From the NCBI GenBank assembly GCA_964633715.1, contig CAZWHQ010000012.1, positions 8,062 to 72,061 on the forward strand: a stretch of 64,000 bases of DNA. The letters run 5' to 3'. Of the stretch, positions 14,476 through 61,071 are shown in pieces. Position 1 is the first letter of the stretch. Each line of letters begins with the position of its first letter. The notes below the pieces were generated by a model. The model saw only the letters and a list, made by a program, of their open reading frames with translations, made no database searches and was not told where the DNA came from. This DNA is from an uncultured Eubacteriales bacterium. Lineage in GTDB: Bacteria > Acidobacteriota > Aminicenantia > Aminicenantales > Aminicenantaceae. A program made the translations under genes and the position numbers.

Positions 14476-14499
14476 TTTCCCTCACAAGAATGTTTTTAT

Positions 14500-18614: not shown

Positions 18615-21353
18615 CTTGAGAGAATGGATCGGTCTTATCATGTACTCTTCCATATCCGGATATATCAAACAGCATCCTCGGCTTTCCCGGAATAATGTCT
18701 GGATAAGATTGAATATCAACGACCCATACATGGCTTTCGTTTGTATAGAAAAGATGTCTTCCATCCCCTGCCCAAAGCGGTTGGTATCCTCCATTTAGGG
18801 ATATCTTCTGACGGCCACCATCTGGACTCAATGACTGAACATAGACTTCATAAATTCCCGTTTCATTTGAGCGATATGCAAGCCAAAGGCCATCAGGAGA
18901 AAACTAGGGATATTTGAGATTAAAATTCGACGGCGAGAAAGGTTTTGCGCTCTTGTTCAGGATATCAAAAAGGAAAGCGGTATTGGAATCTCCTTGAATT
19001 TCCACAAACGTCAGCAAATCCCCTTCAGGAGACCATGAACCAGAATATTTTTCAGTATCATTTTTATAAAGAAGTTCCATCTTTTCGCCATCAGCTTGAA
19101 TTAAGTAAAGGTCAGATGCTACAGACTGAATCCAACTGAAGGCAAGCTGCTTTCCATCTGGAGGAACCCAATTCACATAAGAAGCCACCCCCTCCGATGT
19201 TAACATGGTTGGGATATCTCGAGTGAGGTCATATACCCACAACCGTGGTTCGAGCCCCAAGGTCGTATAGGCAATCTTCTGACCATCAGGAGAAAGCCGG
19301 GGAGCAAAAAAATGTCCCTCTAAAGAGCCTATCGGTTGTTCTGTACCCATCTGATCCACCCAAACAAGGGAGTTTTTCTTGTCAGGGATAATTCCACCAG
19401 CTACATATACCAACTCTCCTGAATTTGAAATGCTGAATAATCCGGAGCCAATATCGGAAAAGAGATTCCCAAAGTTTAACGCCTGCATTACCCCAGAGAC
19501 GATCGGGACAGCACGTCCGATATTTTCAGGTTTATTAATGTCAAAAGGAACAACCATCAGAGTCCCCTGACGAATGAAGATAATATGTCCCGTCTGGATA
19601 TATCGGGCATCTGAGCCGTCCTTCAACAAAATCCTCCACTGATGGGTTTCGGGATCTAAAAAACCTATATCAGGATAGGGCTCATTTTTGGGGTACATGA
19701 TGGTAAATAGAATCCCTTTTCCCAAAGGAAGGACGTGAGGAAGCCGATGGCTGACTTCCTCCCGATTGCGATCTGGTATTGTCAATGGCTCCGTTTCACC
19801 GCTTCCAGCAGAAATGCTGGAAAGCCCTTTATCCCAATCCGAAGAAAATACGATCATTCCATCATCCCCCCAACTGACTCCAAAGGGCCGGGAGACTTCA
19901 CATAATTCCTGGGGGATGCCTCCTCCAACCTGCACCTTCCAGAGTTTATTTTCTGCCCAAAAGCCAACCCACTTGTCATCAGGAGACAGGAATGGGCTGC
20001 CTCCCCCTTCTGTTCCGGCGATGGGAGTAGCTTCCAGTTCGTCAAGTTGTCTAATAAAAAGCTGAGGTATTCGATTTGGTTCGCCATCATCCTTGAGCGC
20101 ACTATAAACAAGGAAATTTCCGTCCCGGGAAATGGCCATGGCAGTCCTGGTTGGCCGTTTAAGAGAATTAATTCTGTACGATCCCCCAAGGGAGTATCCC
20201 GGCCCTAACTTGATCACAGATCGAACTTGTAAAGTAGATAGTTCAATATTGGTAGATCTTTTCACCAAGGAACCGATAAGAATACCTGTAAGGATTAAAA
20301 CTGTTCCGCCTGCGATCATCCAGGCTATTGGAAAACGCTGCTTGGCAGAAAAATCTTCAGTAGGCAGGTCGGCCGGTTCAGCAATCTCGATCCGGGCGTC
20401 AGCAATATCGTGGAGACGCATCCTGGGGTCCTTCTGTAAACATCGGCGAAGAAGCGCCCTTATCCCTCGGGAAGTATTTGATGGAAGTACTGTCCAGTCT
20501 GGTTCGCCCTTTAAGACAAGAGCTAGAGTGTCTGATAGGGTTTCTCCTTGAAGCGGCCGTTTTCCTGATAGACATTCATAAAGTACACTTCCAAAGCCCC
20601 AATGTCAGTCCTTTTATCAACTGCATGGCTCCTGGCTTGCTCTGGGCTCATATAGGCAGCTGTGCCTAAAATAATGCCTGGCTGGGTCATCCGGTCTGTA
20701 AGAGTTGGGGACTTGGAGAGGTCAGTCGCTTTAGGTTCCTCTTGGAAGACTTTTGCCAATCCAAAATCGAGGATCTTAACCTTGCCTTCTGGAGATATCA
20801 TTATGTTTCCCGGTTTTAGATCCCGGTGGATGATTCCTTTTTCATGGGCCGATTCAAGACCCTCCGCTATCTGGCTGCATATTTCAAGAGCCTCGTCCAT
20901 AGGAAGCGGTCCTTTAATTATTCTTTCGGCTAAGGTTTTTCCTTCCACTAATTCCATCACAAGGAACTGCTGTCCATTAGACTTCTCAAGTCCATGGATT
21001 GTCGCGATGTTTTGATGGTTGAGCGATGCCAGTAGTCGGGCTTCCCTTTCGAACCGAGCCAATCGTTCCTTATCCAAAGCAAACGGTTGGGGGAGAACTT
21101 TGACGGCAACCTGACGTTTCAGGCTTGTGTCTTCTGCCAGGTAGACTTCTCCCATTCCTCCCTTACCTAGTTCGCTGATGATTTCGTATCTATTTGCTAA
21201 AGATGTTCCTGGCTTGAATTGAGGATAGGGAGTTTTAATAGTCTTTGTAACTTCAGGAGTATTGATTGACGAACTTAGGTCAGTCCCACAATCACCACAG
21301 AAATTCTTTGTATCAGGATTATCGGTATGACATTTCGGGCATTCGGTTCCCAT
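18601..21353 (-). pseudogene. Kinase 3: zinc-ribbon / Ser-Thr kinase / TM / TolB-like beta-propeller, disrupted by a -1 frameshift near 20605 and an in-frame TAG at 18904-18906
   Basis: Frame A (20523..21353) has the CPKCHTDNP zinc ribbon and kinase subdomains I-IX. The next reading frame continues with HWGFGSVLYECLSGKRPLQGET...CLQKDPRMRLHDIADARIEI (subdomains IX-XI) into the 505-aa ORF. Restoring one T in a homopolymer gives DIWGFGSV. After the TAG at 18904-18906 the same frame continues with FSPDGLWLAYRSNETGIYEV... to 18601. Confidence 0.75.
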
Positions 21354-21377
21354 CGTTCCTCTTTGCTATAGCGACAT

Positions 21378-21408
21378 AAGGATATAAATTTTAGTGAGCG
21401 GGTGTCAA
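21378..21408 (-). promoter_or_regulatory. Conserved kinase-paralog promoter element (copy upstream of kinase 3)
   Basis: AAGGATATAAATT-N11-GGTGTCAA on the plus strand, equivalent to TTGACACC…AATTTATATCCTT on the coding strand. Confidence 0.5.
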
Positions 21409-21521
21409 ATGAGAATACCGGCTCTAAATATTGTTAGGAAACAACCCCTTTCCAAAACATATGGGAAAAAATCAATTATCTCATTCAGAAATGCAGAAAA
21501 GAATTTCCCCGTTAAGATATA

Positions 21522-22052
21522 TCATTGAATGCCAGGAACTAGAGCACTTTTGCTTAGTTTCTCCAGAGTTTTTTGGATTTCCGCATCTGATTTTCCTTGA
21601 ATTTGAATCTTTTTATTAATCCCTAAAACCGTTCCAAGCACTGCACCAGCGACTCCGCCAATAGCTCCAAATGTGATATATTTTTGATTAGGCTCAAAAG
21701 ACCTAGATTGACTTTTTGTGGCTGACCCATAGAGTATGCCAGCTAACACTCCATAAATACCCACTTGCAATACCCTAGATTTTGTCACAATCGTGATCAT
21801 TTCCACTTCCTTTATCAGTATCTGCGATGAAATATCTGCATTTATTTCTGCAGACATTAACAATAACGAATCCTTTTTAACAGTGATGAGTTCACCTGTT
21901 ACTTGTTGACCATCATTTTTCTGAATCCTCAGTTTGGCTCCTTTTCTTACACTTCTGGACAAGTCTTGTGCCATCAAATTCCATGAAAACGCCACTAAAG
22001 AAAGAACAAGCAGCAGTGAAACGATTCCTTTTCTTTTTTCTCCTATAAGCAT
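21522..22052 (-). CDS. Secreted small protein with C-terminal glycine-zipper motif
   Basis: Start at ATG 22052 with a perfect AAGGAG RBS. Signal peptide MLIGEKRKGIVSLLLVLSLVAFSWNLMAQ. C-terminus AIGGVAGAVLGTVLG. It lies between kinases 2 and 3 on the same strand. Confidence 0.6.
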   Translation of the reverse strand: MLIGEKRKGIVSLLLVLSLVAFSWNLMAQDLSRSVRKGAKLRIQKNDGQQVTGELITVKKDSLLLMSAEINADISSQILIKEVEMITIVTKSRVLQVGIYGVLAGILYGSATKSQSRSFEPNQKYITFGAIGGVAGAVLGTVLGINKKIQIQGKSDAEIQKTLEKLSKSALVPGIQ

Positions 22053-22114
22053 TGAACTGTCTCCTTTGTGGATATACATGAAAAGTTAGAGCACCAAGCT
22101 CGGTAAACCTAAAT

Positions 22115-25100
22115 TCATTCTTTCAACCCAGCCAGTCTCTGCTTCGCGTCATCGACTTCAGGGAGGCCGGGATCGGCGTCTTTCCAGAGGTCTAGGAATT
22201 TCTCGTAATTCTCGATGGCAATGGTTTTGTCGCCCTGTTGTTCGTGAATCTTACCGAGCATATAAAAAGCCTTAGCATAAATATTGCCCCAATAAAGCCT
22301 GCCCCATGTCAAGGAAATTATCGTTTCATAATTCTCTTGGGCATTCTCTAAGTCTCCCGCCTTAAAGTTGGCAAAAGCCAAGGAATCGTAAAATAAAGCA
22401 TCAAATGTAGAGTGACCAGATTTTTGAGAGGGTAAAACGGACAATGTTTTCTTAAAATATTCAACAGCAAGCGAATAGTTGTTTTTCTTTTGCTCTATTC
22501 CTCCTTGCAAATGATAATAAAATCTTATGATTTTTTTGTATATTCCATTCTCAATAAATTCTTTTAGTTCATCTGCTGTTTCCTGAGCTTTATCAATAGA
22601 ATTCATCCCAATGTAGGCAAGTCCCTTCTGCCAAAGAGCGACTCTTTGCCTAGAAAGGCTTTCCGTCTCCAAGGCAAAATCCAAATACTTCTCATTTTCT
22701 TTCAAAGCTGAGCTAAAATCTCCAATTGAAAGATAATGTTCGCACAAATAAAGATGAGTATAGGATTCAGCTGAAGCATTTGAAGCTTGAATCGATAACT
22801 CACGCCTCTTTTCAATTTGTTCTTTTGATTCTCTAAATTTCCCTTCAGCCCGATATAATAATGACAAGCGGAACATACTTCCCCTAACATAGCCTTCATT
22901 CGAAGTATCGGCAAGTTTTTGGAATTCTTTTTCTGCTTCTAAAAAATCTCCTTTCAACAAGTAAATATCTCCAAAATAATAATAAATCCCATGATAAGTT
23001 GGGTCGAGGGAAAAGGCTTTGTTTGCTTCATTCAATGCAAGGTCAAATTCTCCCTGAGAAGCATAAATAGTGGATATTCGTCTGCGAAGAAATGCAGAAT
23101 CGGAAAAGCTTTTGGTATAATCTTCAAGTATTTCTCTGGCTTTATCATAAAGTCCTTTAGCTTCATACATAATTGACATTCCATTGTAGGTAACAGTAGA
23201 AGAGACTTTTTGCTTCATGTTCGCTTCATATGGTTTGATAGCCTTATCCCATTCTTCTATTTGAGAATATACCCATGCCAGGTTACTATTCGCCATCCTA
23301 TCATCAGGATAGAGTTCTAGTAGTTTGATATAAGCTTCAATACTTTTATCAAAGGTCTTCTCTGAAACATTGTAGAAATCTCCTTCGATGATATACCGCT
23401 CTCGCTCCGATATACGTTCTCTCAGTTCAAAAGCTTTCTGGATATAAACTTTTTCTTTATCTAAATTACGAAGATTGTAGGAAGCTGCTGCCATACTTCT
23501 GTAGGCCATTGCAATTCCTGGATCAAGGTCGACAGCTTTCTCCATAATTGCTATGCTATTCTCCCATTCCCGATTGCGAAAAAATTCTCTACCCTTGCTG
23601 TAAAACTTAAAAGCTTCAGGTATTGCGGTTGTAATTTCCCTTAACTCTTTGTTGATATCCTCTGCTATTAGTCTTGGAGATAGATCCAGGTCTGACTTGA
23701 TCTGGTTTGACACCTCGTCTACTTTGGAAATGATCTCTTCTTCTCCAATACATTCAATACGCAAAGAGTTTATAACCTCACCTGTCTGCTGACTTTGAAG
23801 CGATAAAGTGATGATGATGTTTTGCCCGGGTTTCAAGATGCTTCCACTTAAAGTGTGGGAAGCTCTTCCTTCGCTTGCAACTTTTACGAGATCTTCTTTG
23901 GTATATTTTTTGCCCTCATCCAGATTGAGCTTCTTTAAGATACTGTAGACCGTGTTTCCGTCTAACACATTGATGTATTTTGATTGAGCAAGCTTTATGA
24001 TGAGCAGTTCAGTGAGTCCCATTTCCCAGGCATCCAGGCTGCTATCGCTTGAGAGATTATCAAAGTAGAGGATAGCAAGGGATGGTTTTTCTGTTAGAGA
24101 TGGAATGAATTCTTTCTTTGGGATAAACTGCAAGATCATGAATGTGATGACGGCCAGAGCAATGATTCCAATTGTGGGGATTAGGAGTTTTTTTACTTTG
24201 AACTTTACTGTTATCTCCTTTGAAGTTACCGACTTTTTTTTCGATACAATCCTGTCAGTAGTAGGAATTCCTTTCTCAATATTCTCTAATTCAGACCGTA
24301 ATTCTTCTGCACTCTGATAACGGTTTTCCCTATCTTTTTCTAGACATTTCAAAATCAACTGGTTGAAGTCGTCTGGGATTCGCTCATTAAAATTCTTGGG
24401 AGCTTTTGGAGTTTCAGTCCTTTGTTTGACTCCAACAGTAATAGCGGAATCCCCTTCAAAGGGCACCCTGTCTGTCAGCATTTTGTAGAGGATAATTCCT
24501 AGAGAATAAATATCCGATCTCTGATCGACATCTTTTCCTTCAACTTGCTCAGGTGACATATATTCTGGAGTACCGATTATGGCTCCAGATCCTGTAATGC
24601 TTTTTCCTTTGACAGCCCTGGCAATACCAAAGTCCATAATCCTTACGTTCCCGCCCCTGTCGATCATGATATTGTTGGGTTTAAGGTCTCTGTGGATTAT
24701 CCCAAGGCTGTGTGCTTCCTTGAGTCCAGCACAAATTTGCTTGGCAATTGAAACGGCTTTTCCAACCGTAAGTTGTCCTGTCTGGCGAATCAATCCTTTT
24801 AAATCCTGTCCAGAGATGTATTCCATGGTGATGTAGTGGAGGTTCTTCTCTTCCCCCAAATCAAACATCGCACAGACATTCTTGTGCCTTATCTTTCGTG
24901 CAAACTTAAGTTCATTCCTGAATCGTTCAATAGTTTTTTTATCTGCTGCAATTTCAGGTTTGATGAGCTTTAAAGCAACTTCTTCTTTGACCTTAGTATC
25001 TTCTACTCTATAAACTTTACCCATCCCTCCTTTACCCAGTTCTTCGATAATTTCGTACCTGTCAACGAAAGTACTTCCGCGAGTTAATGCTTCCGTAGAA

Positions 25101-25219
25101 GTTTCATATGTTTTGGTGAGGACTCCCTCTCTTGCATCAGGAAGAGGAGTGTCACACTCACCACAGAATTTCTGAGAATCAGGATTATCTGTGTGACACT
25201 TAGGGCATGTTGTGCTCAT
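22115..25219 (-). CDS. Zinc-ribbon / Ser-Thr protein kinase / TM / TPR-repeat sensor (kinase 2), paralog of kinase 1
   Basis: CPKCHTDNP...CGEC. Kinase motifs GKGGMGKVYRV, HRDLKPNNIMID, DFGIAR and GTPEYMSPEQ. A TM segment and a long TPR region. The C-terminus DLWKDADPG..DAKQRLAGLKE parallels kinase 1. Confidence 0.9.
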   Translation of the reverse strand: MSTTCPKCHTDNPDSQKFCGECDTPLPDAREGVLTKTYETSTEALTRGSTFVDRYEIIEELGKGGMGKVYRVEDTKVKEEVALKLIKPEIAADKKTIERFRNELKFARKIRHKNVCAMFDLGEEKNLHYITMEYISGQDLKGLIRQTGQLTVGKAVSIAKQICAGLKEAHSLGIIHRDLKPNNIMIDRGGNVRIMDFGIARAVKGKSITGSGAIIGTPEYMSPEQVEGKDVDQRSDIYSLGIILYKMLTDRVPFEGDSAITVGVKQRTETPKAPKNFNERIPDDFNQLILKCLEKDRENRYQSAEELRSELENIEKGIPTTDRIVSKKKSVTSKEITVKFKVKKLLIPTIGIIALAVITFMILQFIPKKEFIPSLTEKPSLAILYFDNLSSDSSLDAWEMGLTELLIIKLAQSKYINVLDGNTVYSILKKLNLDEGKKYTKEDLVKVASEGRASHTLSGSILKPGQNIIITLSLQSQQTGEVINSLRIECIGEEEIISKVDEVSNQIKSDLDLSPRLIAEDINKELREITTAIPEAFKFYSKGREFFRNREWENSIAIMEKAVDLDPGIAMAYRSMAAASYNLRNLDKEKVYIQKAFELRERISERERYIIEGDFYNVSEKTFDKSIEAYIKLLELYPDDRMANSNLAWVYSQIEEWDKAIKPYEANMKQKVSSTVTYNGMSIMYEAKGLYDKAREILEDYTKSFSDSAFLRRRISTIYASQGEFDLALNEANKAFSLDPTYHGIYYYFGDIYLLKGDFLEAEKEFQKLADTSNEGYVRGSMFRLSLLYRAEGKFRESKEQIEKRRELSIQASNASAESYTHLYLCEHYLSIGDFSSALKENEKYLDFALETESLSRQRVALWQKGLAYIGMNSIDKAQETADELKEFIENGIYKKIIRFYYHLQGGIEQKKNNYSLAVEYFKKTLSVLPSQKSGHSTFDALFYDSLAFANFKAGDLENAQENYETIISLTWGRLYWGNIYAKAFYMLGKIHEQQGDKTIAIENYEKFLDLWKDADPGLPEVDDAKQRLAGLKE

Positions 25220-52309: not shown

Positions 52310-52559
52310 ATACTTTACTGTTGCTCTCCAGCCCTTTAACGAGGAAAACCTGGTTGAGTTTAACTCAAACATGTGAGACTATACATTCAAGGAAGGAGAC
52401 ATGAATCCTCGCAAGAATAAAGGGGTATCAAGGCATGAATTCCTCAAAACTGCGGGCACATCGTCGAGCATGAAACAGGGCCAACTTCATGGAGAGCACC
52501 AAAGGCTGTTTGGAGGGACTCCCTAAAATGGGTCGGGGATTGTAAACAAAGAGGTGAAT

Positions 52560-54152
52560 ATGGGACAGACAAATAATACCCTAAACCGTCGGGACTTCAT
52601 TAAAATAACGGCTGCGGCTGGAATCACAACCCTTTTGCCGAGCTGCCGGTCAGAGTCAGCCAAAAAAAACAAACAACGGCCTAACGTGCTGTTTGTCATT
52701 GTCGACGACCTCAGGCCCGAACTGGGATGTTACGGCAATCCGGAAATAAAAACCCCGAATTTTGACAAGCTGGCCGGAGAAGGGATTTTCTTTGCGCAGA
52801 CTCACTGCCAAGCTGCGGCCTGCGCGCCCTCCCGAGCCAGTGTTATGCTGGGCATGAGGCCCGACTCCACCCGGGTGTGGAGCCTGGGCGAAAAGTTCCG
52901 GGAGATCAATCCAAACTATGTCACCATGCCCCAGCATTTTTTTAAACACGGCTACCACACTGTCTCCATGGGAAAAATCTTCCACAACCACATGCCCGAT
53001 CGTTTATCTTTTGTAGAACCGGACTTGAAGCCAACTGAGTACATGACCCCTGAGATGATCGACCGGGATGCAGAATCCTTCTATTATGACGAAGAATTAA
53101 ACGAGGAACTGGCCCAAGTCAGAGAACGGAGGCTTAAAAAGAATCCCAATGCTTATGCCGACGGTTGGGCTTATGGACGCTCCTGGGAAAGTTCAGATGC
53201 CCCCGATAACGCTTTTTATGATGGTGCGCAAACAGACCTGGCCATAGAAAAGTTGAAAGAATTAAAAGAGAAAGACAAGCCCTTTTATTTCGCATTGGGC
53301 TACTTCCGGCCGCACTTGCCCTTTGTCGCCCCTAAGAAATATTGGGACCTCTATGACCGGCAAAAACTTCCGTTGGCCGACAATCCCTATCTACCTAAGG
53401 ATTCTCCGATTATGGCCATAAATTCCGCTTACGAACTCAAGGCCTGCTATGATCTAGAGTGGGTTAAGCACCCCTCGGTCGAACAAATTCCAGAGGAAAC
53501 CGCCCGACTTTTGAAGCATGGTTATTATGCATCCGTCAGCTATGTGGATGCCTGTCTAGGCCGCCTGATGGATGGATTAAAGGAGCTGGGATTGGATAAA
53601 AATACGATTGTGGTTGTCTGGGGCGATCATGGTTGGAAACTTGGAGAACACGGTAGCTGGTGCAAACAGACGAACTACAACGTCGACACACGAGTTCCTT
53701 TGATTATTCGAACACCAGACATGACGGTTACAGGACAATCCTGCGAACAGCTTACAGAGCTTGTTGACCTCTTCCCCACACTCTGTGATCTAACGGGAAT
53801 TGAAATTCCAGACTATATGGAAGGATCGAGCCTCAAGCCGTTGCTCAATAATCCGGATTCGAAAATAAAGAACGCGGCCTTCAGCCAATATGTACGGCGG
53901 CCCAAGAATTCGCCCGATGGAAAGCGTTATATGGGATACTCAATGGTGACCAAACAGTATCACTATGTGGAGTGGTATCACTGGGATCACGACACAAAAA
54001 CCGCCGGCGAGCTGGCCGCTCTCGAACTCTATAACACCCAAACAGATCCAGGTGAAAACATCAATATAGCCGGGATTCCGGAAAATAAGGACGTTGTCCA
54101 ACAGCTGGCCCAGCAAATAAAGGCGGGCTGGAGAGCCGCGCGAATGCGTTAG
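52560..54152 (+). CDS. Cys-type sulfatase (formylglycine-dependent) with Tat signal
   Basis: Start ATG 52560 with an AAGAGG RBS. NRRDFIKITAAAGITTLLPSC is a Tat motif. CAPSRASVMLGMRP is the C-x-P-x-R FGly motif. GDHGW is present. Confidence 0.85.
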   Translation: MGQTNNTLNRRDFIKITAAAGITTLLPSCRSESAKKNKQRPNVLFVIVDDLRPELGCYGNPEIKTPNFDKLAGEGIFFAQTHCQAAACAPSRASVMLGMRPDSTRVWSLGEKFREINPNYVTMPQHFFKHGYHTVSMGKIFHNHMPDRLSFVEPDLKPTEYMTPEMIDRDAESFYYDEELNEELAQVRERRLKKNPNAYADGWAYGRSWESSDAPDNAFYDGAQTDLAIEKLKELKEKDKPFYFALGYFRPHLPFVAPKKYWDLYDRQKLPLADNPYLPKDSPIMAINSAYELKACYDLEWVKHPSVEQIPEETARLLKHGYYASVSYVDACLGRLMDGLKELGLDKNTIVVVWGDHGWKLGEHGSWCKQTNYNVDTRVPLIIRTPDMTVTGQSCEQLTELVDLFPTLCDLTGIEIPDYMEGSSLKPLLNNPDSKIKNAAFSQYVRRPKNSPDGKRYMGYSMVTKQYHYVEWYHWDHDTKTAGELAALELYNTQTDPGENINIAGIPENKDVVQQLAQQIKAGWRAARMR

Positions 54153-54161: not shown

Positions 54162-55082
54162 TCAGATCTTATCTTCCCCCTCTCTGATTTGATTTTTCTT
54201 TAATAAACCAAAAAGAAAAAGTTTCATGAAAAATAATCCAAACAGAATTGGAATGAGGCGATTTACGAAAGAGACCAAAAGGCTTGCTCCCAGTAATCTC
54301 TCTGGAGTCGCATAATTCGAAAAGATTAAAAGAATAGTGCTTTCCCTGGTACCCAGGCCCGAGGGAGTTAGGGGAAGCATAGAAGCCAGAATGGACAGGG
54401 GAACAAGGCGCAATAGGACACCAAACGGAACCTCTATATCCAGAGCCGTAAAGAGAAGATACGTATTGAGCAGTTTTAAACCCTCAAACCCCAAGGAATA
54501 AAAAAAAAGAAGGGAGAGTGTTTTAGAATTCAATCTATCAATAATTTCCTTATTCTTTAAAAAAATCTTAATGAGTCTTTTAAGAAGAGGGACCAACATC
54601 AGAAAAAGGAAAAACAATAGACCAAGATAGTATCTTTGCTTTAAGGCAAATTGATCGAAAAGCCATCCCACAAAAACAAAAAAAGACAAAGCAGCAGCAC
54701 TTAGAGCGTATCCAAACAGAACAGAAGTCAGACCTTTGGGATAGGAGAGATGATGTCTCTTTTTCAGATAGGCAATCCTGGTCAATTCTCCACCTTTAAG
54801 GGGAAGAATTCCCTTTAAAGGAATACTCCCTATTCTGAGGATAAAGGCTTCCTTAAAAGAAAGAGGGCAGTCCAAGATTCTCAGTATCTCCCTCTGTCTA
54901 CCTGGTGAGAAAAAGACATACATAAACAGACATACCAGAATACTCAAAGAAACCAATTTAACGTCAGCCTGTCCAAAAACGATAAGAGCTTCTGAAAATT
55001 CTATTTTAGAGAAAATGATCACAAAGAGGACAATGGTTAAAACCCAGGGGAAAGCAAATTTTATAGTTTTTTTAAAATTCAT
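54162..55082 (-). CDS. UPF0104 / lysyl-PG-synthase-TM-like flippase-like membrane protein
   Basis: 306 aa with 8 or more TM segments. The architecture is that of the flippase-like domain found with lipid-modifying enzymes. Confidence 0.55.
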   Translation of the reverse strand: MNFKKTIKFAFPWVLTIVLFVIIFSKIEFSEALIVFGQADVKLVSLSILVCLFMYVFFSPGRQREILRILDCPLSFKEAFILRIGSIPLKGILPLKGGELTRIAYLKKRHHLSYPKGLTSVLFGYALSAAALSFFVFVGWLFDQFALKQRYYLGLLFFLFLMLVPLLKRLIKIFLKNKEIIDRLNSKTLSLLFFYSLGFEGLKLLNTYLLFTALDIEVPFGVLLRLVPLSILASMLPLTPSGLGTRESTILLIFSNYATPERLLGASLLVSFVNRLIPILFGLFFMKLFLFGLLKKNQIREGEDKI

Positions 55083-55098
55083 AAATTCGAATGTTTTT

Positions 55099-56187
55099 TT
55101 ATTTTATGTGTTTTTGTCTCCGGTAATATTTTTTATTGAGATGATAATAAAGGACATTGACTAAAGTGGGTAGAGAAAAATTATAAATCAGATTCAATTC
55201 TAAACGGTGATGATGCCAGCAATCTTGGCACTCAGGAAGATTAACAAGCTCCCAGGCTTTTCTAAATCCATCTTTGATGACGTTCACTGGATTATCCCTA
55301 TCGATGGCATAGTAACAAGGAACGAGCTGTCCATCGGGCTGGATGCGCCCAAATATTCGACCTGCAGTGCACGGCAAATCACCAAAGTTTGGAAATTTAT
55401 TCAAATAGTTGAGCATAACCATGGATTGATCCATGGGATTATAGAATTTTCCCTGGCCAGAAAAAATGTCGTTGAAGATAGAATCTGTGCCAAATCTTTG
55501 TAGAACTCCAATAAATTGTCTTAAATTTCTTGTCTTTCTTATCTCTTTTAAGAAATCCAATAATTCCGCTAGCTGCTCTTGAGAAGGACCTAGCTCAGGC
55601 AGATCACAGAGAGGTTGGAAACTCACAAAAGCGCGTGTGTCCATAGCCTTACCTAAGGCAAAAGTAAGGCTCTCCACTGTTGTGTACTTGTTAATCACAG
55701 AAACAATTAAACATCGCCAGTTGTTTTTTTTTACCACATTCAAGGCCTTCATTATCTGTAAGAAAGAACCCTCTCCCCGAGCTCTTTCATGCGCGTTTAA
55801 ATCACCATCCAAGCTGACTTGAATCATATCCGCAGAGGCGGCTTTTAATTCCTTTTCCATCTGGGGTAGCAATAAACCGTTTGTCGTGTACTGAACCCAC
55901 ATCCCCAGTTTTTTTGCCTTGACTATAAGTTCGGGCAAATGTGGGATTAATAGAGGTTCTCCACCTGTAAAAGAGACAATTTTGCAGCCTGCTTCATGGA
56001 TTTCATCCAAAATCCTGAAGTGCTCCTCCTGCCCCAACTCTTCTGTCTCTTCACTCGCATAGCAGTGCGGACAATTAAGATTGCACTTATGAGTCAGCTC
56101 AAAGGCCATCGCCAGCGGATATCTCTTTCCAATAAATTTGCAGGCCAGAAGGCGTGTTCCCAAGATAAACATCGTTTTTAATTTCAT
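55099..56187 (-). CDS. Radical SAM enzyme with C-terminal Cys-rich SPASM/twitch-like region
   Basis: CNLNCPHCYA is a CxxxCxxC motif. C-terminal cysteines are in LPCTAGRIF…VPCYYAI…LPECQDCW. About 360 aa, like anSME or peptide-modifying rSAMs. Confidence 0.7.
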   Translation of the reverse strand: MKLKTMFILGTRLLACKFIGKRYPLAMAFELTHKCNLNCPHCYASEETEELGQEEHFRILDEIHEAGCKIVSFTGGEPLLIPHLPELIVKAKKLGMWVQYTTNGLLLPQMEKELKAASADMIQVSLDGDLNAHERARGEGSFLQIMKALNVVKKNNWRCLIVSVINKYTTVESLTFALGKAMDTRAFVSFQPLCDLPELGPSQEQLAELLDFLKEIRKTRNLRQFIGVLQRFGTDSIFNDIFSGQGKFYNPMDQSMVMLNYLNKFPNFGDLPCTAGRIFGRIQPDGQLVPCYYAIDRDNPVNVIKDGFRKAWELVNLPECQDCWHHHRLELNLIYNFSLPTLVNVLYYHLNKKYYRRQKHIK

Positions 56188-56238
56188 GACAACTCTAACT
56201 TTTTCCTATTCAAATAATAGACATTTTCTTTTATTTAG

Positions 56239-57720
56239 TTATTTAAATTTCGACATCTTCCAGTAAAAATCCAGCTTTTTGGAGGTTTCGTGGTAAGCGA
56301 CAAAATCCTCATCCTTTTTGGACAGATCTTCTTGGGAAAAGACCATCTCCAGATAACCTAAGAACTTTCTCCTAAACTCTGAAAAAGAACGGATCTTCAA
56401 AGTTGATCTTAATAAAAAAGAGGGCCGGGAATGATAGCTCACATAAGCCCCCTTAGCCATGCGGTCAATCTGTTCATTGGTAAGTTCTGTCCAAGGCCGG
56501 GGAAGGGGTCTATCCACTTCTTTTCCAAGTATCCATTCTCTCCAGTAGTCTTCCCCTGTATCCTCCTTCATCTGTTTCCACAAGGAAGTCAAAGGTTTAG
56601 CCAAACACTTGGAAAACTGAACATAATCCAGGTCAAGTTCCTTGGCAAATTTCACCGTCCTTTTAACAGTTTTTTTCGTTTCTCCCGGCGCCCCGACCAA
56701 AAAAAAGCCGAGAGCTTTTATCCCCAATTCTTTGGTTTTTCCTATCGTCTTCCTTATTTGATCAAAAGTGATATCCTTCCCTAACTTATCCATCACAGCT
56801 TGAGAGCCCGTCTCCAATCCATAATAGATCCTGCCACATCCGGCATCCTTCATCTCCTGCAATAACTCAGCATCGATATCCACCCGGGACCTGCAGGCCC
56901 AGAGAAGGTCAAGATTCTTTTTTTTTATCCCCCGGCAGATTTCTATCGTTCTTTTCCTGTCGATGGTGAAGTCATAGTCAAATATGTCTATCTCCCGAAT
57001 GCCGTATTTATTAAAACACTCTTCCATTTCACCCAAAACCGTCTCTGGACTCCGCGGATTAAAGGCTGTTTGACCCGCCTCGCAGAAGCTGCAGGAATAA
57101 GGACAGCCTAAACTGGTCACCATTACCGTAAAATTTTTCCTCTCTGTAGGAAACTCGGCATAGAGGTCATTGGGAAGAAGATCTCTGGCTGGATGAGGAA
57201 ACTTATCAAAGTCGACCGGCTGGGTTGGATTTATCCTGATCTCGCCATTGTCCTTATAGACCAAACCCACTACCTCCTCCAATTTTCTCTTGCCTTCCAG
57301 CACAGATAATAGCTGTGGGATTGTGTCTAGGGCATGCTCTATCACGCCAAAATCTATCTCGGAGTGGCTCAGAGACTCCCGAGGATAGACACGGAGATTA
57401 TACCCTCCGATGACAACTTTTGTTTTGAGCTCTTTTTTCAGATACCTAATCCATTCCAGAGTTTCAGGAAACATATAGGTGGTCATCATAAAACCCATAA
57501 TATCCGGCTTAAAGCTCTTCAGTTTATCTAAAACTTCTTCCTTGGAGAGCTTTAGCGTCCGGGCATCGATGAGAGTCACCCGGTGACCTGCTTGCCGGGC
57601 AATGGCAGCAACCCAGGCCAGGCTTAATGGAGGAAACATTCCAAAATATTTTTGGACAATCCGCAAATTTTCCTCATGAACTTTGTATTTAAAGGGATTG
57701 AAAATCAGAGCGAACCGCAT
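56239..57720 (-). CDS. B12-binding-domain radical SAM enzyme (class B)
   Basis: The N-terminal cobalamin-binding Rossmann region is MRFALIFNPF…PPLSLAWVAAIARQAGHRVTLID. VTSLGCPYSCSFCEAG is the CxxxCxxC motif. Confidence 0.8.
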   Translation of the reverse strand: MRFALIFNPFKYKVHEENLRIVQKYFGMFPPLSLAWVAAIARQAGHRVTLIDARTLKLSKEEVLDKLKSFKPDIMGFMMTTYMFPETLEWIRYLKKELKTKVVIGGYNLRVYPRESLSHSEIDFGVIEHALDTIPQLLSVLEGKRKLEEVVGLVYKDNGEIRINPTQPVDFDKFPHPARDLLPNDLYAEFPTERKNFTVMVTSLGCPYSCSFCEAGQTAFNPRSPETVLGEMEECFNKYGIREIDIFDYDFTIDRKRTIEICRGIKKKNLDLLWACRSRVDIDAELLQEMKDAGCGRIYYGLETGSQAVMDKLGKDITFDQIRKTIGKTKELGIKALGFFLVGAPGETKKTVKRTVKFAKELDLDYVQFSKCLAKPLTSLWKQMKEDTGEDYWREWILGKEVDRPLPRPWTELTNEQIDRMAKGAYVSYHSRPSFLLRSTLKIRSFSEFRRKFLGYLEMVFSQEDLSKKDEDFVAYHETSKKLDFYWKMSKFK

Positions 57721-57721
57721 T

Positions 57722-59296
57722 CTAAATTTTTGTGAATATTCTTTTCCAAATTAAATAACCATTCAGGAATATACTCAATAAAATCAAGGGAACAATAAAT
57801 TGGGTTAACAGTCGTATTTTGCCTCCCATTGCGTAAGTTGTAATAAACCAATAATCTAGGCAAGTGTTTCTTATAAAATCTTCGCCTTTGCCTTCATAGG
57901 AAATATTTTCTCGAATGGCAGAAATTGTCTGCTTTAGGTGTAAAGGCCAAAGTTCAAAAAGCGCAATTACGGATGAATATTTTGGCTCAAAGACAAAATC
58001 CTGGCTGTCATCGATTCCTTGTCCAGTCATAACATTGACGTAATCCAATCCAACCGCTAAAAACTGGATCAAAAAGCTTAATCCCACGAGAAGGACGACC
58101 ATAACGAGGAGTAATTTCTTTTTATTCTTATATATTTTTTCAATAACCGTACCCATGGGCAAAAGCAAAAAGACACTTATCGTAACCATGTGCCTGGGCC
58201 CCCAACTGTAGCCTCCATCCCAGCCTTCGTGCCTTGAATAGAATAAAAGGTAAATGAGAGGGATGGACAGAAACAGCAGAGCCTCAACTCGAAAACGTTT
58301 CATAAAACTCTTAATTCCGAAGAAAAAAAGCAGAAGACTGGGGGCATAGACAAAAAGCCCCTTACCCGGACTCAATAACTGTCCGACTATTCCTTCGTAA
58401 ATGGGATTCGTGAACAATTGAATTTTGCTTCCATATCCCGTTTCCCAAATGGACCCGAATCTCATGAAGTTATAACCCAGGACAAGGAAGGTAAATACGG
58501 TTAAGGGCATAACAAATACAATGAAGCGATGTATTGCACCTTTGAGGTCTATTTTTTCTCTGTGCAATAAATACAGCAAATAAAGGAGCAGTAAAGGCGT
58601 CACTATAATCGAGGCATGTCTTGTGGACACAGAAAATCCAAGGGCTATTCCAGAAAACAGCAACCACTTCATCTCTCCCGTTTGTTTATAACGATACAAA
58701 GCAAAACAAGAAAAAAACAGTAAAAATGAAACTAAAGGCTGCTCAAAAAAATATTTGGTGTACGACCAAGCCAGGGTTGTCAAACCATAGATCAGACAGA
58801 CAAAAAAACCCACCTGTGGAGAAAATTTGAGCCTCTTCACAAATAAAAAAATTAAAACGCACATCAAGGCTGTTATGAGTGGAGAAAAAACAAGCACTGT
58901 GGCTTGAAGGCCATTCAAATCTGAACCAAAAACAGCCCTGCCTAACAAAAACAGGGGGACAGCGGCCAGGGATTGCCCAAAGCCATATTTGGCATAGACA
59001 TATCCGTTTGGACCAATCTTACCCAGGGGAGTATCTGTGCCCGGTTGACTTTCGCTCTGTGTATGATTGGCACCATAAGGCTGACCATCAGGCCAATAAG
59101 TAAATCGGCCATCCAAAACAAAGTTTTGAGTCACAAAATAGAGGGCCTGATCATGCATGACATAAAAATGTCCGGCCATGGTCAGCACATAAATGGATAG
59201 GAAAAAGAAAAACAGGATTATTCCTATTGGAATGTTTTTATAAAACTTTTGTTTTAAGAAGTTTAGTGTCACTCTCATCGCTATTATCGCATTCAA
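57722..59296 (-). CDS. Polytopic GT-C-fold glycosyltransferase-like membrane protein (ArnT/PMT-like)
   Basis: 524 aa with about 12-13 TM segments and a large loop after TM1. Its stop lies 1 nt before the B12-rSAM start. Confidence 0.5.
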   Translation of the reverse strand: MNAIIAMRVTLNFLKQKFYKNIPIGIILFFFFLSIYVLTMAGHFYVMHDQALYFVTQNFVLDGRFTYWPDGQPYGANHTQSESQPGTDTPLGKIGPNGYVYAKYGFGQSLAAVPLFLLGRAVFGSDLNGLQATVLVFSPLITALMCVLIFLFVKRLKFSPQVGFFVCLIYGLTTLAWSYTKYFFEQPLVSFLLFFSCFALYRYKQTGEMKWLLFSGIALGFSVSTRHASIIVTPLLLLYLLYLLHREKIDLKGAIHRFIVFVMPLTVFTFLVLGYNFMRFGSIWETGYGSKIQLFTNPIYEGIVGQLLSPGKGLFVYAPSLLLFFFGIKSFMKRFRVEALLFLSIPLIYLLFYSRHEGWDGGYSWGPRHMVTISVFLLLPMGTVIEKIYKNKKKLLLVMVVLLVGLSFLIQFLAVGLDYVNVMTGQGIDDSQDFVFEPKYSSVIALFELWPLHLKQTISAIRENISYEGKGEDFIRNTCLDYWFITTYAMGGKIRLLTQFIVPLILLSIFLNGYLIWKRIFTKI

Positions 59297-59378
59297 TTAT
59301 CCACTGCCAACAGAAAGACATAAAATGGATAAATTGAAAAATCCAATTTTGCTCATATTTTGCCGTTTTAAAGAAGAG

Positions 59379-60347
59379 TTATTTATCTTCAGGTTCGAGA
59401 TAGATCCGGGCGTTGGGCAAAATATCCTTGATCTCCTTTTCAATACTGTTGTTTATTTTTTCCAACTCCTCAACGATAAGCCCATCCTTGTATTCAATCT
59501 CTACAACAATCAGGACATCATCGGAACTGAGATGCATACTTTTTAATCTGATCACTCGTACGACATCATCAAAATCATTCACAGCTTTAATGACTTGAGC
59601 TCGTTTGAGGGCTGATACTCCTTCTCCGATGAGCAGTTTTTTCGTTTCCACAGCCAGAAAAAAAGCAAACACCATGAGAAGTGTTCCAATCACGATGGAG
59701 GCCATGGCATCGATAATGAGTGCCCCGGTTACCTGAACAAGCGCGATGGCCACAGCGGCAATCACCAAACCCACAAGCGCAAGAGAGTCCTCAAAAAGCA
59801 CAGTCAGAGTCGTTGGATCTTTGCTGTCCCGTATGGCACAAAAAAAGTTGGCATGTTTTTCTTTTTTCATTTCTGTTTTGATAGTTTGAATAGCCATCCG
59901 GAGTGCAATACTCTCGAAAAAAGCGGCCACGGCGATGGCCAGATAGGCCAGCCACACATTTGTAATCGGTTCGGGATGAATCAGTTTATGATAGCCTTCT
60001 CTTATGGAGAGGCCACCGGCGACAGCAAAAAGGATAATCGCCACCATAAAAGACCAGAAAAACTGTTCTTTTCCATGTCCAAAAGGATGACCGGCATCGG
60101 GTTTTCTGCGACTTGCTTTTAATCCAATGAGAAGCAGAATTTGGTTAAAGGTATCGGAGACCGAGTGATAGGCCTCGGCCAGCATCGAGGAAGAGCTGCT
60201 GAGCAGTGCGGCGGCCAATTTAAAAACAGCAATACAGAGGTTGGCGATCAAGGCGGCAATAACAGCTCTTTTACTCTTGTGTTGCATTTTTTTTAAGCCA
60301 TTAATCAGGAATATACCGTGGATATGTGTTTTTTGCCTTTTCGGCAT
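59379..60347 (-). CDS. Cation diffusion facilitator (CDF) family metal efflux transporter
   Basis: AYHSVSDTF is a TM2 metal site. Six TM segments plus a C-terminal cytoplasmic domain. The probable start is the internal ATG near 60287, which avoids overlap with the upstream gene. Confidence 0.8.
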   Translation of the reverse strand: MPKRQKTHIHGIFLINGLKKMQHKSKRAVIAALIANLCIAVFKLAAALLSSSSSMLAEAYHSVSDTFNQILLLIGLKASRRKPDAGHPFGHGKEQFFWSFMVAIILFAVAGGLSIREGYHKLIHPEPITNVWLAYLAIAVAAFFESIALRMAIQTIKTEMKKEKHANFFCAIRDSKDPTTLTVLFEDSLALVGLVIAAVAIALVQVTGALIIDAMASIVIGTLLMVFAFFLAVETKKLLIGEGVSALKRAQVIKAVNDFDDVVRVIRLKSMHLSSDDVLIVVEIEYKDGLIVEELEKINNSIEKEIKDILPNARIYLEPEDK

Positions 60348-61071
60348 TTTTTAGATCGATGTCGCAGGTGAGAAAAGGCTTGTCGGCTGATGTGACACCT
60401 AAAACACGACCATCGGGATTGATAATCCAACCTTTCCCTCCCAGCTCAGCCGGATTCCCTTTGGAAGCCACACGGTTAGACGAAAGAGAATAGGCTCCGG
60501 ACACAACTGCAGCTGCCTGGCCGGCCACCAGCCATTTGTCCAATGTGTTTTTTGGCGTCGCGCGTGGACAGACCACAATATGAGCTCCCTGCTTTCCGTA
60601 TTGGCGGGAGCGCTCGAAAAACCAAATCCCTGAACAGATGAGAAATCCCACAGAGACAGGACCACTCTGAGCAGTCTTAAATTCCCCATCCCCACGGGAA
60701 TACCAGGTAGCTTCCCAATAGCCCTCTTCATCGGGAAGATAAAATTTATCATGGGCCCCTTGGTATCCATTTTTTATATCCCATATAAATCCCTGATTGA
60801 GACGAACAAAACCGTTTTCTTTTGGATTAGACCCCAGAACACATGCAGGAGCCAGTTCTTCACACCGTTCCAACCACCTCTTGTGGGCTTCCAAGCTCTC
60901 CTTCCAGAGTCGGGGATCAAAGCGATTTCGCCAAAAAAGCCATGGATAAAACGGCATTTCCGGCAGCAAAACGAAGTCGCTTTTTTCTTTTTGGACAAAA
61001 TCGACCAGCCTGTTCCAATCTCTGGTAAAATCTTCTTTAGAATCATTCATCTCACATACTGTGACTCTCAT
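60301..61071 (-). CDS. Carbon-nitrogen hydrolase (nitrilase superfamily) protein
   Basis: The Glu-Lys-Cys triad context includes LLPEMPF and GFLICSGIWF (catalytic Cys). Confidence 0.7.
   Translation of the reverse strand: MRVTVCEMNDSKEDFTRDWNRLVDFVQKEKSDFVLLPEMPFYPWLFWRNRFDPRLWKESLEAHKRWLERCEELAPACVLGSNPKENGFVRLNQGFIWDIKNGYQGAHDKFYLPDEEGYWEATWYSRGDGEFKTAQSGPVSVGFLICSGIWFFERSRQYGKQGAHIVVCPRATPKNTLDKWLVAGQAAAVVSGAYSLSSNRVASKGNPAELGGKGWIINPDGRVLGVTSADKPFLTCDIDLKNAEKAKNTYPRYIPD

Follow-up and report, generated by a model that had tools for sequence, protein, structure and literature searches.

What could two radical SAM enzymes do between a membrane glycosyltransferase and a flippase-like protein, when all four are encoded in one tight operon? 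The operon occupies positions 54162-59296 of a 64-kb stretch of DNA (here, the window) from an uncultured bacterium. The initial annotation had read it as a novel membrane-modification system, possibly one that methylates the alkyl chains of membrane-spanning lipids or cross-links them. We find that the modify-then-export logic of that proposal agrees with the data and that its hydrocarbon-chain chemistry is not supported. Most likely, the operon makes and exports a chemically unusual lipid-linked envelope sugar.

Operon architecture and surroundings

Four minus-strand open reading frames, separated by 1, 51 and 16 nt according to the ORF calls, form a single unit, as had been described. From first to last they encode a GT-C fold membrane glycosyltransferase (57722-59296; 524 aa, TTG start), a radical SAM enzyme with a B12-binding domain, hereafter the anchor (56239-57720; 493 aa), a small radical SAM enzyme with a Twitch-like, four-cysteine C-terminus (55099-56187; 362 aa) and a protein with the UPF0104, or MprF-flippase, domain (54162-55082; 306 aa). 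An alternative ATG start at 59278, the one called by JGI, gives a GT-C product of 518 aa. A promoter-like match on the same strand (59283-59310; TTGGCA-16-GATAAT with a TG extension) falls within the 82 nt that separate the GT-C gene from the CDF gene. Because the region holds 11 such matches against 13.4 expected from shuffling, and thus no excess, this is only a tentative candidate for the operon start. No Rfam elements were found.

The CDF exporter and the sulfatase on either side are separate units, in agreement with the initial annotation. The CDF gene does not keep its upstream position in the sister locus L007, and the sulfatase (52554-54152) is convergent with the operon on the opposite strand, ending 9 nt from it. 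A TAT signal and a CAPSR motif mark this sulfatase, and the latter implies that it needs formylglycine maturation. Also as annotated, neither a hopanoid cyclase nor polyprenyl genes were found nearby, and no precursor-peptide ORF lies in or beside the operon, whose gaps of at most 51 nt leave no ORF-sized space. The GT-C, UPF0104 and small radical SAM families have no members in the window other than the operon's three. GT2, GT9 and DegT proteins gave zero matches across the whole 64 kb, and the window holds no cytoplasmic glycosyltransferase, nucleotide-sugar enzyme or polyprenyl-phosphate GT2.

The four encoded proteins

The domain assignments made at the outset are borne out by Pfam and NCBIfam scores and, for the GT-C and B12-domain proteins, by AlphaFold2 models searched with Foldseek. 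The anchor scores 62.3 bits for the B12-binding domain and 79 bits for Radical_SAM in Pfam, and its CX3CX2C motif (C206/C210/C213) is invariant in 15 orthologues. HpnJ is its top NCBIfam match, nearly full length at 178 bits, far below the cutoff of 577.6; among PDB structures AprD4 matches best (95 bits, TM 0.67-0.73), and the model (pLDDT 77) resembles AprD4, QCMT, OxsB, TsrM and TokK. Identity to solved structures is 17-21%, and the likeness to HpnJ, AprD4 and OxsB is one of superfamily. These closest curated or solved relatives act on sugar rings, the substrate of AprD4 being an aminoglycoside sugar. HpnJ converts a lipid-borne glucosamine to a cyclitol (PMC13459092), and OxsB contracts the ring of a deoxyribose (PMC12931638). 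The domain suggests that the anchor uses cobalamin; AprD4 has been grouped with the non-B12 outliers of the B12-radical SAM superfamily (PMC12931638).

The small radical SAM enzyme (Radical_SAM, 83 bits in Pfam) carries C35-x3-C39-x2-C42, a GGEP motif at 75-78 and C-terminal cysteines at 273, 291, 320 and 323, all kept by 34-39 of the 39 family members, anchor-adjacent copies in other phyla among them. Its C-terminus had been called Cys-rich and SPASM-like. Conserved cysteines are indeed present, but they number only four (C273-x12-G-x4-C291 ... C320-x2-C323) and the SPASM domain PF13186 is not matched in Pfam; the pattern is Twitch-like, with one predicted auxiliary cluster. About 11 clusters alone reach at least 48% identity to this protein, and its scores against all curated NCBIfam families (about 53-83 bits) are far below the cutoffs. 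For both radical SAM enzymes the scores stay below cutoff in every curated family, HpnJ, Tes and anSME included, which leaves them outside the characterised non-lipid pathways. Both are soluble, lacking transmembrane segments.

The GT-C protein matches PMT_2 in Pfam (37.3 bits, cutoff 26.1) and not the ArnT NCBIfam model. With its model (pLDDT 75.5, pTM 0.82), 34 of the 37 top PDB matches, and all of ranks 1-33, are GT-C enzymes at TM of about 0.41-0.45, among them OST/STT3, Pmt4, AglB, PglB, ArnT, AftB, Emb and ALG9. These enzymes all use polyprenyl-(di)phosphate-linked donors. For this protein, first described as having 13 transmembrane segments, a crude hydropathy count gives nine strongly hydrophobic ones. 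The family has two conserved acidic columns, and in this protein both are offset by a single residue (D49 and E185). Close homologues are scarce: besides the protein's own entry there is just one, in L007 (85% identity), and beyond it identity drops to 31-34%. No characterised members were found of this GT-C subfamily or of the anchor and small radical SAM families.

The UPF0104 protein, with at least six predicted transmembrane segments, matches PF03706 (LPG_synthase_TM; 111.6 bits, cutoff 33.4) and the TIGR00374 flippase-like domain (80 bits, cutoff 43.2). It has no aminoacyl-PG synthase domain (28.8 bits for the MprF model, against 600) and no match to the HpnL model of NCBIfam. Precedents for the family are MprF, GpgF and HexF (PMC12713373) and the UPF0104 member of an archaeal trio (PMC5898192), all predicted to flip lipid-linked sugars or lipids with modified head groups, although for stand-alone UPF0104 proteins this activity is mostly a prediction and not a demonstrated one (PMC12713373; 10.1101/2025.07.29.667474).

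Co-localisation across phyla

The anchor family is present in 166 species genomes, at 62-91% identity across Omnitrophota, Desulfobacterota, Planctomycetota, Elusimicrobia and others, and more than 120 protein clusters reach at least 64% identity to the anchor. Partners were counted within 8 kb in 58 anchor loci with enough flanking sequence, from at least six phyla. A GT-C-type or UPF0104 protein occurs in 47 of the 58, an enrichment judged only against a rough expectation. Taken singly, GT-C-type proteins are found in 64% of loci, additional B12-domain radical SAM enzymes in 60%, UPF0104 in 25 (43%, and directly adjoining the anchor in 16 listed loci), heptosyltransferase-like GT9 proteins in 36%, small Twitch-type radical SAM enzymes in 16 (28%), ArnC-like GT2 in 22% and ArnB/PseC-like DegT aminotransferases in 12%. 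The GT2 partners match ArnC (the Und-P-Ara4FN transferase), PgfS and Dol-P-hexose transferases best, and the DegT partners PseC and ArnB. An AsnB-like amidotransferase and TPR-fused GT-C proteins also recur, and orthologues of the small radical SAM enzyme elsewhere adjoin PMT_2, DUF2079 or TPR proteins, UPF0104, GT2 and AsnB-like genes. These partners are carbohydrate enzymes and so point to a lipid carrier whose sugar or head group is modified, not to acyl-chain methylation or cross-linking.

The set of partners is variable. Five loci have none, and at least seven show the minimal pair of anchor and UPF0104 amid unrelated genes. Joint conservation of the four genes holds at the level of families, with all three partner families beside the anchor in six of the 58 loci; the exact order recurs solely in L007, from a closely related MAG at 85-91% identity, and all component families are present in five further loci. 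Across phyla the anchor retains 62-77% identity; in the same loci the values are only 25-45% for UPF0104 and 24-31% for the small radical SAM enzyme, and tblastn does not detect the GT-C protein. This pattern fits a fixed donor chemistry and variable acceptors. In L012, arrays of up to four TPR-fused GT-C genes lie on the flanks of the anchor.

Candidate pathway, competing readings and known relatives

We give an even chance to one specific scheme, in which the operon would tailor, flip and transfer a lipid-anchored cell-envelope sugar. On the cytoplasmic side of the membrane, a transferase encoded outside the operon would load a sugar onto a lipid carrier, either polyprenyl phosphate or a glycolipid; the window has no GT2, GT9, DegT or nucleotide-sugar enzyme, so this step would rely on genes elsewhere, and related loci have an ArnC-like GT2 or a GT9 adjoining the anchor. 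The HpnJ/AprD4-like anchor and the Twitch-type enzyme, both soluble, would then alter the polar or sugar moiety through radical chemistry, with C-methylation, ring contraction to a carbocycle, deoxygenation and dehydrogenation as candidate reactions. The UPF0104 protein would bring the resulting lipid to the outer leaflet, where the GT-C enzyme, with a periplasm-facing active site and lipid-linked donors, would transfer the modified sugar to LPS or lipid A, another glycan or a protein. In a close variant, the flipped glycolipid would itself be the end product, as in HpnIJKL or GpgSDF, and the GT-C enzyme would decorate it further. Substrate, step order and chemistry are what we infer from this assembly.

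That the radical SAM pair instead alters lipid hydrocarbon, by methylation, cyclisation or tail-to-tail or bridge coupling in the manner of Mss, Tes, Grs, Hbs, Gms, Hgm or Gmm, with UPF0104 redistributing the product, seems unlikely. The archaeal hgm-hbs arrangement does place a B12-domain enzyme beside a SPASM/Twitch one, and the minimal anchor-UPF0104 pair would suit a bulk membrane lipid. The hosts are all MAGs of uncultivated, presumably anaerobic lineages with predicted unusual lipids, and Mss, Tes and Hbs homologues occur in Omnitrophota and Planctomycetes MAGs (10.1101/2023.10.20.563219). The small enzyme, however, fails the published Hbs features, having no N-terminal COG4001 extension of about 100 aa, four C-terminal cysteines instead of 7-8, and 362 aa where at least 400 are expected. 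It scores 53 bits for Tes against a cutoff of 450, and GDGT-MAS (7tol) matches its radical SAM core alone, at 44 bits; the comparison covered these two and the Hbs features. Sugar enzymes and GT-C transferases, rather than fatty-acid, ether-lipid or isoprenoid genes, accompany the anchor, whose closest relatives act on sugar rings, and characterised UPF0104 proteins go with head-group, not tail, modifications (PMC12713373, PMC5898192).

A protein substrate is improbable as well. In this reading, a secreted or envelope protein, or a RiPP, would be altered by the radical SAM enzymes prior to export and glycosylated in the periplasm by the GT-C enzyme. TPR-fused GT-C neighbours are frequent (one cluster, c1, in 22 loci), and in Smithella and Syntrophaceae loci conserved secreted proteins and a C39 peptidase come after the UPF0104-anchor pair. 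Peptide- and protein-methylating B12-domain enzymes exist (ApyD, 131 bits, and QCMT, 57 bits, against the anchor) and SkfB is the best PDB match of the small enzyme, but these matches are no better than generic radical SAM core ones. The missing precursor ORF argues against this reading, as does the lack of a protease or ABC exporter in the window operon, and it leaves UPF0104 without a role. It is very doubtful that the four genes are chance neighbours with separate jobs, the small enzyme serving, for example, as an anSME for the sulfatase and the B12-domain enzyme in housekeeping. The sulfatase is close by and in need of maturation, and in L091 an FGE-sulfatase-domain gene adjoins PMT_2 and UPF0104 genes. 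Yet that sulfatase lies on the opposite strand, the small enzyme has four C-terminal cysteines, not seven or more, and no SPASM match, anSME is absent from its best 25 NCBIfam matches, and its family adjoins the anchor in sulfatase-free loci (16 of 58). Tight spacing and co-localisation across phyla also speak against chance.

The lipid-linked sugar pathway has several partial precedents. The hpn system likewise combines a B12-domain radical SAM enzyme (HpnJ, the anchor's top curated family), a UPF0104 membrane protein and a glycosyltransferase around the sugar head group of a lipid. Unlike it, the operon adds a periplasm-facing GT-C enzyme and a Twitch-type radical SAM enzyme, its anchor scores far below the HpnJ cutoff, its UPF0104 protein does not match the HpnL model, and the window lacks SHC, HpnH, HpnG, HpnI (GT2) and HpnK (deacetylase); HpnJ-model matches were seen only in SHC-positive genomes (10.1101/2025.07.29.667474). 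In the Arn (ArnB/ArnC/ArnD/ArnE-F/ArnT), Gtr and CsbB-GtcA-YfhO systems, a polyprenyl-phosphate sugar is made, tailored on the cytoplasmic side of the membrane, flipped, and transferred by a GT-C enzyme to a periplasmic acceptor. The ArnC-, ArnB- and PseC-like neighbours of the anchor's relatives and the structural match to ArnT recall this scheme, whereas the operon has two radical SAM enzymes in place of the Arn deformylase, UPF0104 as candidate flippase in place of an ArnE/F or GtrA type, a GT-C outside the ArnT family and, in the window, neither GT2 nor aminotransferase. Archaeal and bacterial tetraether-lipid radical SAM pairs (Hbs/Gms with Hgm/Gmm; Tes, Mss, GrsA/B; Cds) share the adjoining B12-domain and SPASM/Twitch-class enzymes and act on membrane lipids, and differ in the small enzyme and in the operon's glycan-enzyme partners. 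Cds reportedly contracts a lipid-linked hexose, as HpnJ does. UPF0104 is paired with GT-C or head-group-modifying enzymes, or both, in MprF, in GpgSDF and HexSDF, which have a cytoplasmic glycosyltransferase and a deacetylase but no GT-C, and in a predicted archaeal glycosylation trio of UPF0104 (arCOG00899), a PMT/STT3-like GT-C (MJ_1079) and an AglD-like GT2 (MJ_1080) (PMC5898192); all of these, unlike the operon, are without radical SAM enzymes. The operon would represent a pathway variant, pairing two radical SAM enzymes with a flippase-like protein and a GT-C enzyme, of a kind that nobody has yet characterised.

The operon and its surroundings

Four minus-strand genes, separated by only 1, 51 and 16 nt, make up the operon at 54162-59296. 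The first (57722-59296) encodes a GT-C protein recognized by the Pfam PMT_2 model (37.3 bits, cutoff 26.1), and the second (56239-57720) a 493-residue radical SAM enzyme with a B12-binding domain (PF02310, 62.3 bits against 32.1; PF04055 Radical_SAM, 79 bits), which served as the anchor for our comparative work. These are followed by a smaller radical SAM enzyme of 362 residues (55099-56187; Radical_SAM, 83 bits in Pfam) and an LPG_synthase_TM/UPF0104 protein (54162-55082), whose assignment is secured by PF03706 (111.6 against 33.4 bits), TIGR00374 (80 against 43.2 bits) and at least six hydrophobic segments. Pfam and NCBIfam therefore upheld the domain calls made for these ORFs in the initial annotation. 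Its exclusion of the flanking CDF and sulfatase genes from the operon is also sound: the sulfatase gene is convergent and, in the sister locus L007, a different gene on the opposite strand lies upstream of the GT-C gene. The upstream CN-hydrolase gene, like the CDF gene, is outside the unit.

The GT-C, UPF0104 and small radical SAM families are each represented in the 64-kb window by the operon member only, and no GT2, GT9 or DegT gene occurs there. The GC content of the operon (0.405, versus 0.441 for the remaining window) is compatible with horizontal acquisition; GC3 is 0.375 for the UPF0104 gene and 0.553 for the sulfatase gene. The end of the sulfatase gene (52554-54152, plus strand), whose product is of the Cys type (CAPSR) with a TAT signal, lies 9 nt from the operon. 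As listed, the CDF ORF (59379-60347) overlaps the CN-hydrolase gene (60301-61071) by 47 nt, an overlap that disappears in the JGI product, which starts at the internal Met21 and has 302 residues. Genes at 28-52 kb and 61-64 kb of the window encode peptidases, sugar catabolism enzymes, PadR and MacB-like proteins, none related to the operon. Further away, at 11350-25219, toxin-antitoxin genes of the HicAB and PIN types and a fragment of an ISL3 transposase accompany a cluster of three genes for Ser/Thr protein kinases, of which two have TPR regions. No riboswitch emerged when 50-64 kb was scanned with Rfam, and matches in a promoter and terminator scan did not rise above shuffled expectation.

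Family assignment of the four proteins

The anchor is a class B member of the radical SAM superfamily, combining a Rossmann-type B12-binding domain with a CX3CX2C core whose cysteines (C206, C210 and C213) are invariant. Its AlphaFold2 model (pLDDT 77) matched AprD4, QCMT (9CCB), OxsB, TsrM and TokK, with TM scores of 0.58-0.68 when normalized to the query. Cobalamin use by the anchor is predicted from the domain alone. The DxHxxG motif is absent, as expected for base-off binders, and AprD4, the best structural match, has been placed among the non-B12 outliers (PMC12931638). Among NCBIfam models, BchE (133 bits), AprD4 (109 bits) and the ladderane B12-radical SAM model (105 bits) also scored. 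The curated hopanoid models were rejected for both proteins: the anchor reaches 178 bits against a cutoff of 577.6 for the HpnJ model TIGR03471 and the UPF0104 protein has no match to HpnL (TIGR03476) at E <= 0.01. SHC, HpnH and HpnI were absent from Pfam and NCBIfam scans of window positions 28-64 kb and, judged by neighbourhoods only, the recurrent partners at 80 related loci belong to other families.

The initial annotation had described the Cys-rich tail of the small radical SAM enzyme as SPASM-like. Twitch domains were recognized by CX3CX2C with a C-terminal CX9-15GX4C ... CX2C, to which a full SPASM domain adds CX5CX3C ... C. The protein carries C35/C39/C42 and C273-x12-G286-x4-C291 ... 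C320-x2-C323, conserved in 34-39 of 39 aligned sequences; the description thus holds for a Twitch-like half with four conserved cysteines but not for a full SPASM domain, nor is there a match to PF13186. Judged from its sequence, the tail is a Twitch-like single-cluster motif. Radical SAM enzymes of about 330 residues that adjoin anchors in other phyla carry every one of these motifs in the same 39-sequence alignment, and therefore form one family with the window protein.

Whether the radical SAM pair could be placed in a characterized family, as the initial annotation had asked, was checked against NCBIfam: neither enzyme approaches any curated cutoff, and scores for the small one are at most 83 bits throughout. 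Pfam, NCBIfam and PADLOC scans of the four operon proteins and their neighbours gave no equivalog-level match for either enzyme, and no curated model for Mss, GrsA/B, Hgm/Gmm or Cds appeared among the matches listed. A prokaryotic viperin was also considered for the small enzyme and dismissed; pVip scores 82 bits on residues 25-176 (the radical SAM core) only, the NCBIfam viperin model reaches 67 bits where 180 are required, and the PADLOC defence scan of operon proteins and neighbours returned nothing beyond this core resemblance.

For the GT-C protein, the AlphaFold2 model (pLDDT 75.5, pTM 0.82) retrieved GT-C enzymes at all of Foldseek PDB ranks 1-33, including STT3, Pmt4, AglB, PglB, ArnT, AftB, EmbB and ALG9, and the modelled protein has the GT-C membrane fold. 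GT-C enzymes are expected to have a conserved acidic residue in their first periplasmic loop. The candidate column of the family holds Asp in 12 of 14 sequences, but His in the window protein and its sister, where Asp comes one position later (H48-D49), and a second conserved Glu is likewise displaced by one residue (E185-Q186). In the window protein and one close homologue, then, H-D replaces D-G and E-Q replaces S-E. Beyond its own entry and that one close homologue, relatives fall to 31-34% identity. The curated ArnT model has no match, and the LA_3751/LA_3752 family was discarded (NF047440, 64.5 bits against 200), as was a bifunctional MprF for the UPF0104 protein (28.8 bits against 600 for the model of MprF bearing the aminoacyl-PG synthase). 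Neither the GT-C nor the UPF0104 protein had a match at E <= 0.1 when PDB was searched by sequence.

A conserved anchor with variable partners

More than 120 clusters at least 64% identical to the 493-residue anchor over its full length were found among 5.8 billion proteins. Only about 11 clusters are at least 48% identical to the small radical SAM enzyme. Of 166 anchor relatives among 185,579 species genomes scanned, the best 80 are 62-91% identical and come without exception from MAGs or SAGs, labelled Omnitrophota, Planctomycetota, Elusimicrobia/Endomicrobiales, Chlamydiota, Auribacterota, 'Aminicenantes' and Desulfobacterota (Desulfosudaceae, Desulfarculaceae, Smithella, Desulfatiglandales). 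Two archaeal-labelled MAGs, 'Nanoarchaeum sp.' (L032, PNOQ01000030.1) and 'Bathyarchaeia' (P0087), carry the anchor at 66-67% identity; the neighbours in L032 (UPF0104, GT2 and a B12-radical SAM paralogue) are the families of the bacterial loci, and both contigs are probably mis-binned. The Omnitrophota MAG JAHJHM01 has two anchor-family copies on separate contigs (L033 and L041).

We surveyed 82 non-redundant loci by calling and clustering ORFs, building HMMs for recurrent clusters and annotating representatives; partners were counted out to 8 kb from the anchor, using the 58 loci whose flank extended to 6 kb or more. GT-C-type polytopic proteins, either PMT_2-like or TPR-fused, are the most frequent (64%), followed by further B12-radical SAM paralogues (60%), UPF0104 (43%), GT9 heptosyltransferase-like proteins (36%, often directly upstream), the small Twitch-type radical SAM enzyme (28%), GT2 (22%) and DegT-type aminotransferases (12%). 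A GT-C or UPF0104 protein lies near the anchor in 47 of the 58 and no partner at all in five. At least seven loci have a bare pair of anchor and UPF0104 amid unrelated genes. The GT2 partners best match ArnC (the Und-P-Ara4FN transferase), PgfS and Dol-P-hexose transferases, and the aminotransferases PseC and ArnB. All three partner types of the operon accompany the anchor in six loci: the window's own contig, one Omnitrophota chromosome and four of Desulfobacterales/Desulfosudaceae type, two named as such and one labelled only Thermodesulfobacteriota. The four genes do recur together, in identical order and at 85-91% identity, but only in L007, from an 'Aminicenantes' MAG.

Partner identity in anchor loci is 25-45% for UPF0104 and 24-31% for the small radical SAM enzyme, and the GT-C protein is undetectable by tblastn. 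The anchor, conserved far above its partners, is therefore much more strongly constrained than the genes around it, and wholesale recent transfer of the clusters fails to explain its conservation.

Individual loci add further detail. In two Desulfosudaceae-type loci (L001 and L006, 5236-8150), a GT9 protein of 461-496 residues and an overlapping B12-radical SAM paralogue precede the anchor cassette, which suggests several radical SAM tailoring steps on one glycoconjugate. AsnB-like glutamine amidotransferases stand beside both the anchor and small radical SAM families (L003, 12385-14316; L019, a 625-residue ORF; L092, 2810-4810, there with a DUF2079 membrane protein), a recurrence that hints at amidated sugar acids. 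The small radical SAM enzyme and the GT-C protein are both rare, yet occur in similar company. Relatives of the small radical SAM enzyme are found with GT2, a 593-residue protein without a Pfam match and two B12-radical SAM enzymes (L090); with GT2 and a radical SAM enzyme beside PMT_2, UPF0104 and an FGE-sulfatase-domain gene (L091); with AsnB-like, DUF2079 and radical SAM proteins (L092); with two TPR proteins (L093); or with only another radical SAM enzyme (L088). The FGE-sulfatase-domain gene of L091 (4212-5093) directly follows PMT_2 and UPF0104 on the same strand, with overlapping coordinates, next to the small radical SAM orthologue; the sulfatase links here and in the window may be coincidence or may reflect a tie to sulfated envelope glycans. 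In Smithella/Syntrophaceae MAGs (L085, 6864-~10500; L086, ~11500-15931; L068, 13376-17339), a conserved signal-peptide set (two DUF6160-like proteins of about 165 residues and two families without a Pfam match) and a Peptidase_C39 come after the UPF0104-anchor pair; they could be protein substrates or else a secretion module without relation to the pair.

Proposed pathway, alternatives and meaning

Both radical SAM enzymes lack transmembrane segments and require reduced Fe-S clusters, and therefore act in the cytoplasm. GT-C enzymes, including all structural matches found here, work at the external face of the membrane on polyprenyl-phosphate-linked donors. Stand-alone UPF0104 proteins (the MprF flippase domain) accompany head-group-modified lipids, as in GpgSDF, HexSDF and HpnL (PMC12713373), and those of archaea occur in a conserved trio whose other members are a PMT/STT3-like GT-C protein and an AglD-like GT2 (PMC5898192). 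Given this topology, the only compatible order would be one in which the two radical SAM enzymes tailor a lipid-anchored polar group in the cytoplasm, the UPF0104 protein flips the tailored lipid and the GT-C enzyme transfers after flipping. Methylation, ring contraction, deoxygenation and oxidation are candidate reactions; the window operon holds no priming transferase, which would be supplied from elsewhere. HpnJ, AprD4 and OxsB, the closest characterized relatives of the anchor, all act on sugar rings by radical rearrangement or deoxygenation (PMC13459092, PMC12931638), which fits the proposed order. So does the contrast of an invariant anchor with fast-evolving and often multiplied GT-C/TPR partners, a pattern that suits one fixed donor and many acceptors. 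The Arn/Gtr route follows the same logic, with the difference that radical SAM enzymes here replace the usual tailoring step. We give this reading of the operon an even chance of being correct. More tentatively, and with somewhat less than even confidence, we propose that the anchor family, which spans at least six mostly uncultivated phyla, may perform a single undescribed radical step on a lipid-linked envelope sugar, which would then be flipped by UPF0104 and distributed by diverse GT-C enzymes. The product may be, for example, a sugar that is carbocyclic (cyclitol-like) or C-alkylated and is borne by a polyprenyl or glycolipid carrier.

Modification of the hydrocarbon chains of membrane lipids, given as an example in the initial annotation, now appears unlikely. 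Hbs/Gms membership of the small radical SAM enzyme was rejected: Hbs/Gms enzymes have an AhbD-like SPASM domain with seven to eight C-terminal cysteines, an N-terminal COG4001 extension of about 100 residues and a length of at least 400 residues (10.1101/2023.10.20.563219), whereas this protein has 362 residues, a radical SAM motif from residue 35, four C-terminal cysteines and no such extension. Tes/GDGT-MAS was likewise rejected for it; NF045702 scores 53 bits, on the radical SAM core only, against a cutoff of 450, and 7tol 44 bits. Modification of proteins or RiPPs, coupled with protein glycosylation, is, in our estimation, quite improbable: the intergenic gaps leave no space for a precursor ORF, and the operon lacks a protease or ABC gene, in keeping with the earlier remark that it holds no RiPP precursor, which may be encoded at another site. 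That the genes are unrelated neighbours, or that the small radical SAM enzyme is an anSME for the adjacent Cys-type sulfatase, is very improbable indeed. An anSME would be expected to match a curated model and to have a complete SPASM domain carrying two auxiliary clusters; this enzyme has four C-terminal cysteines, no anSME among its best 25 NCBIfam matches and a gene on the opposite strand, and, lacking an anSME-type SPASM domain, is therefore not the maturase of the CAPSR sulfatase.

Returning to the tailoring of a lipid-anchored polar group, the logic of tailoring, flipping and GT-C transfer is already known, as are HpnJ-like enzymes paired with UPF0104 proteins. Neither the anchor family, nor the Twitch radical SAM family, nor their combination with GT-C and UPF0104 proteins is described in Pfam, NCBIfam or the literature searched. 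If the proposal is correct, radical SAM chemistry would join the Arn-, Gtr- and Agl-type lipid-linked sugar pathways, and the association of an HpnJ-like enzyme with UPF0104 would gain a second setting besides HpnJ/HpnL, aiding the assignment of function to both orphan families. The more specific proposal for the anchor would, if true, bring a new type of building block for envelope glycans and a pathway logic that is also new, in which radical SAM enzymes tailor the sugar while it is linked to a lipid. For heterologous expression, the four genes of the window are a handy minimal construct because of their compactness. On the main proposal, a highly conserved orphan family of B12-radical SAM enzymes in Omnitrophota, Desulfobacterota, Planctomycetota and Elusimicrobia would acquire a function, and uncultivated anaerobes would be predicted to carry a distinctive envelope sugar, perhaps resistant to acid or enzymes, that could serve as a biomarker.
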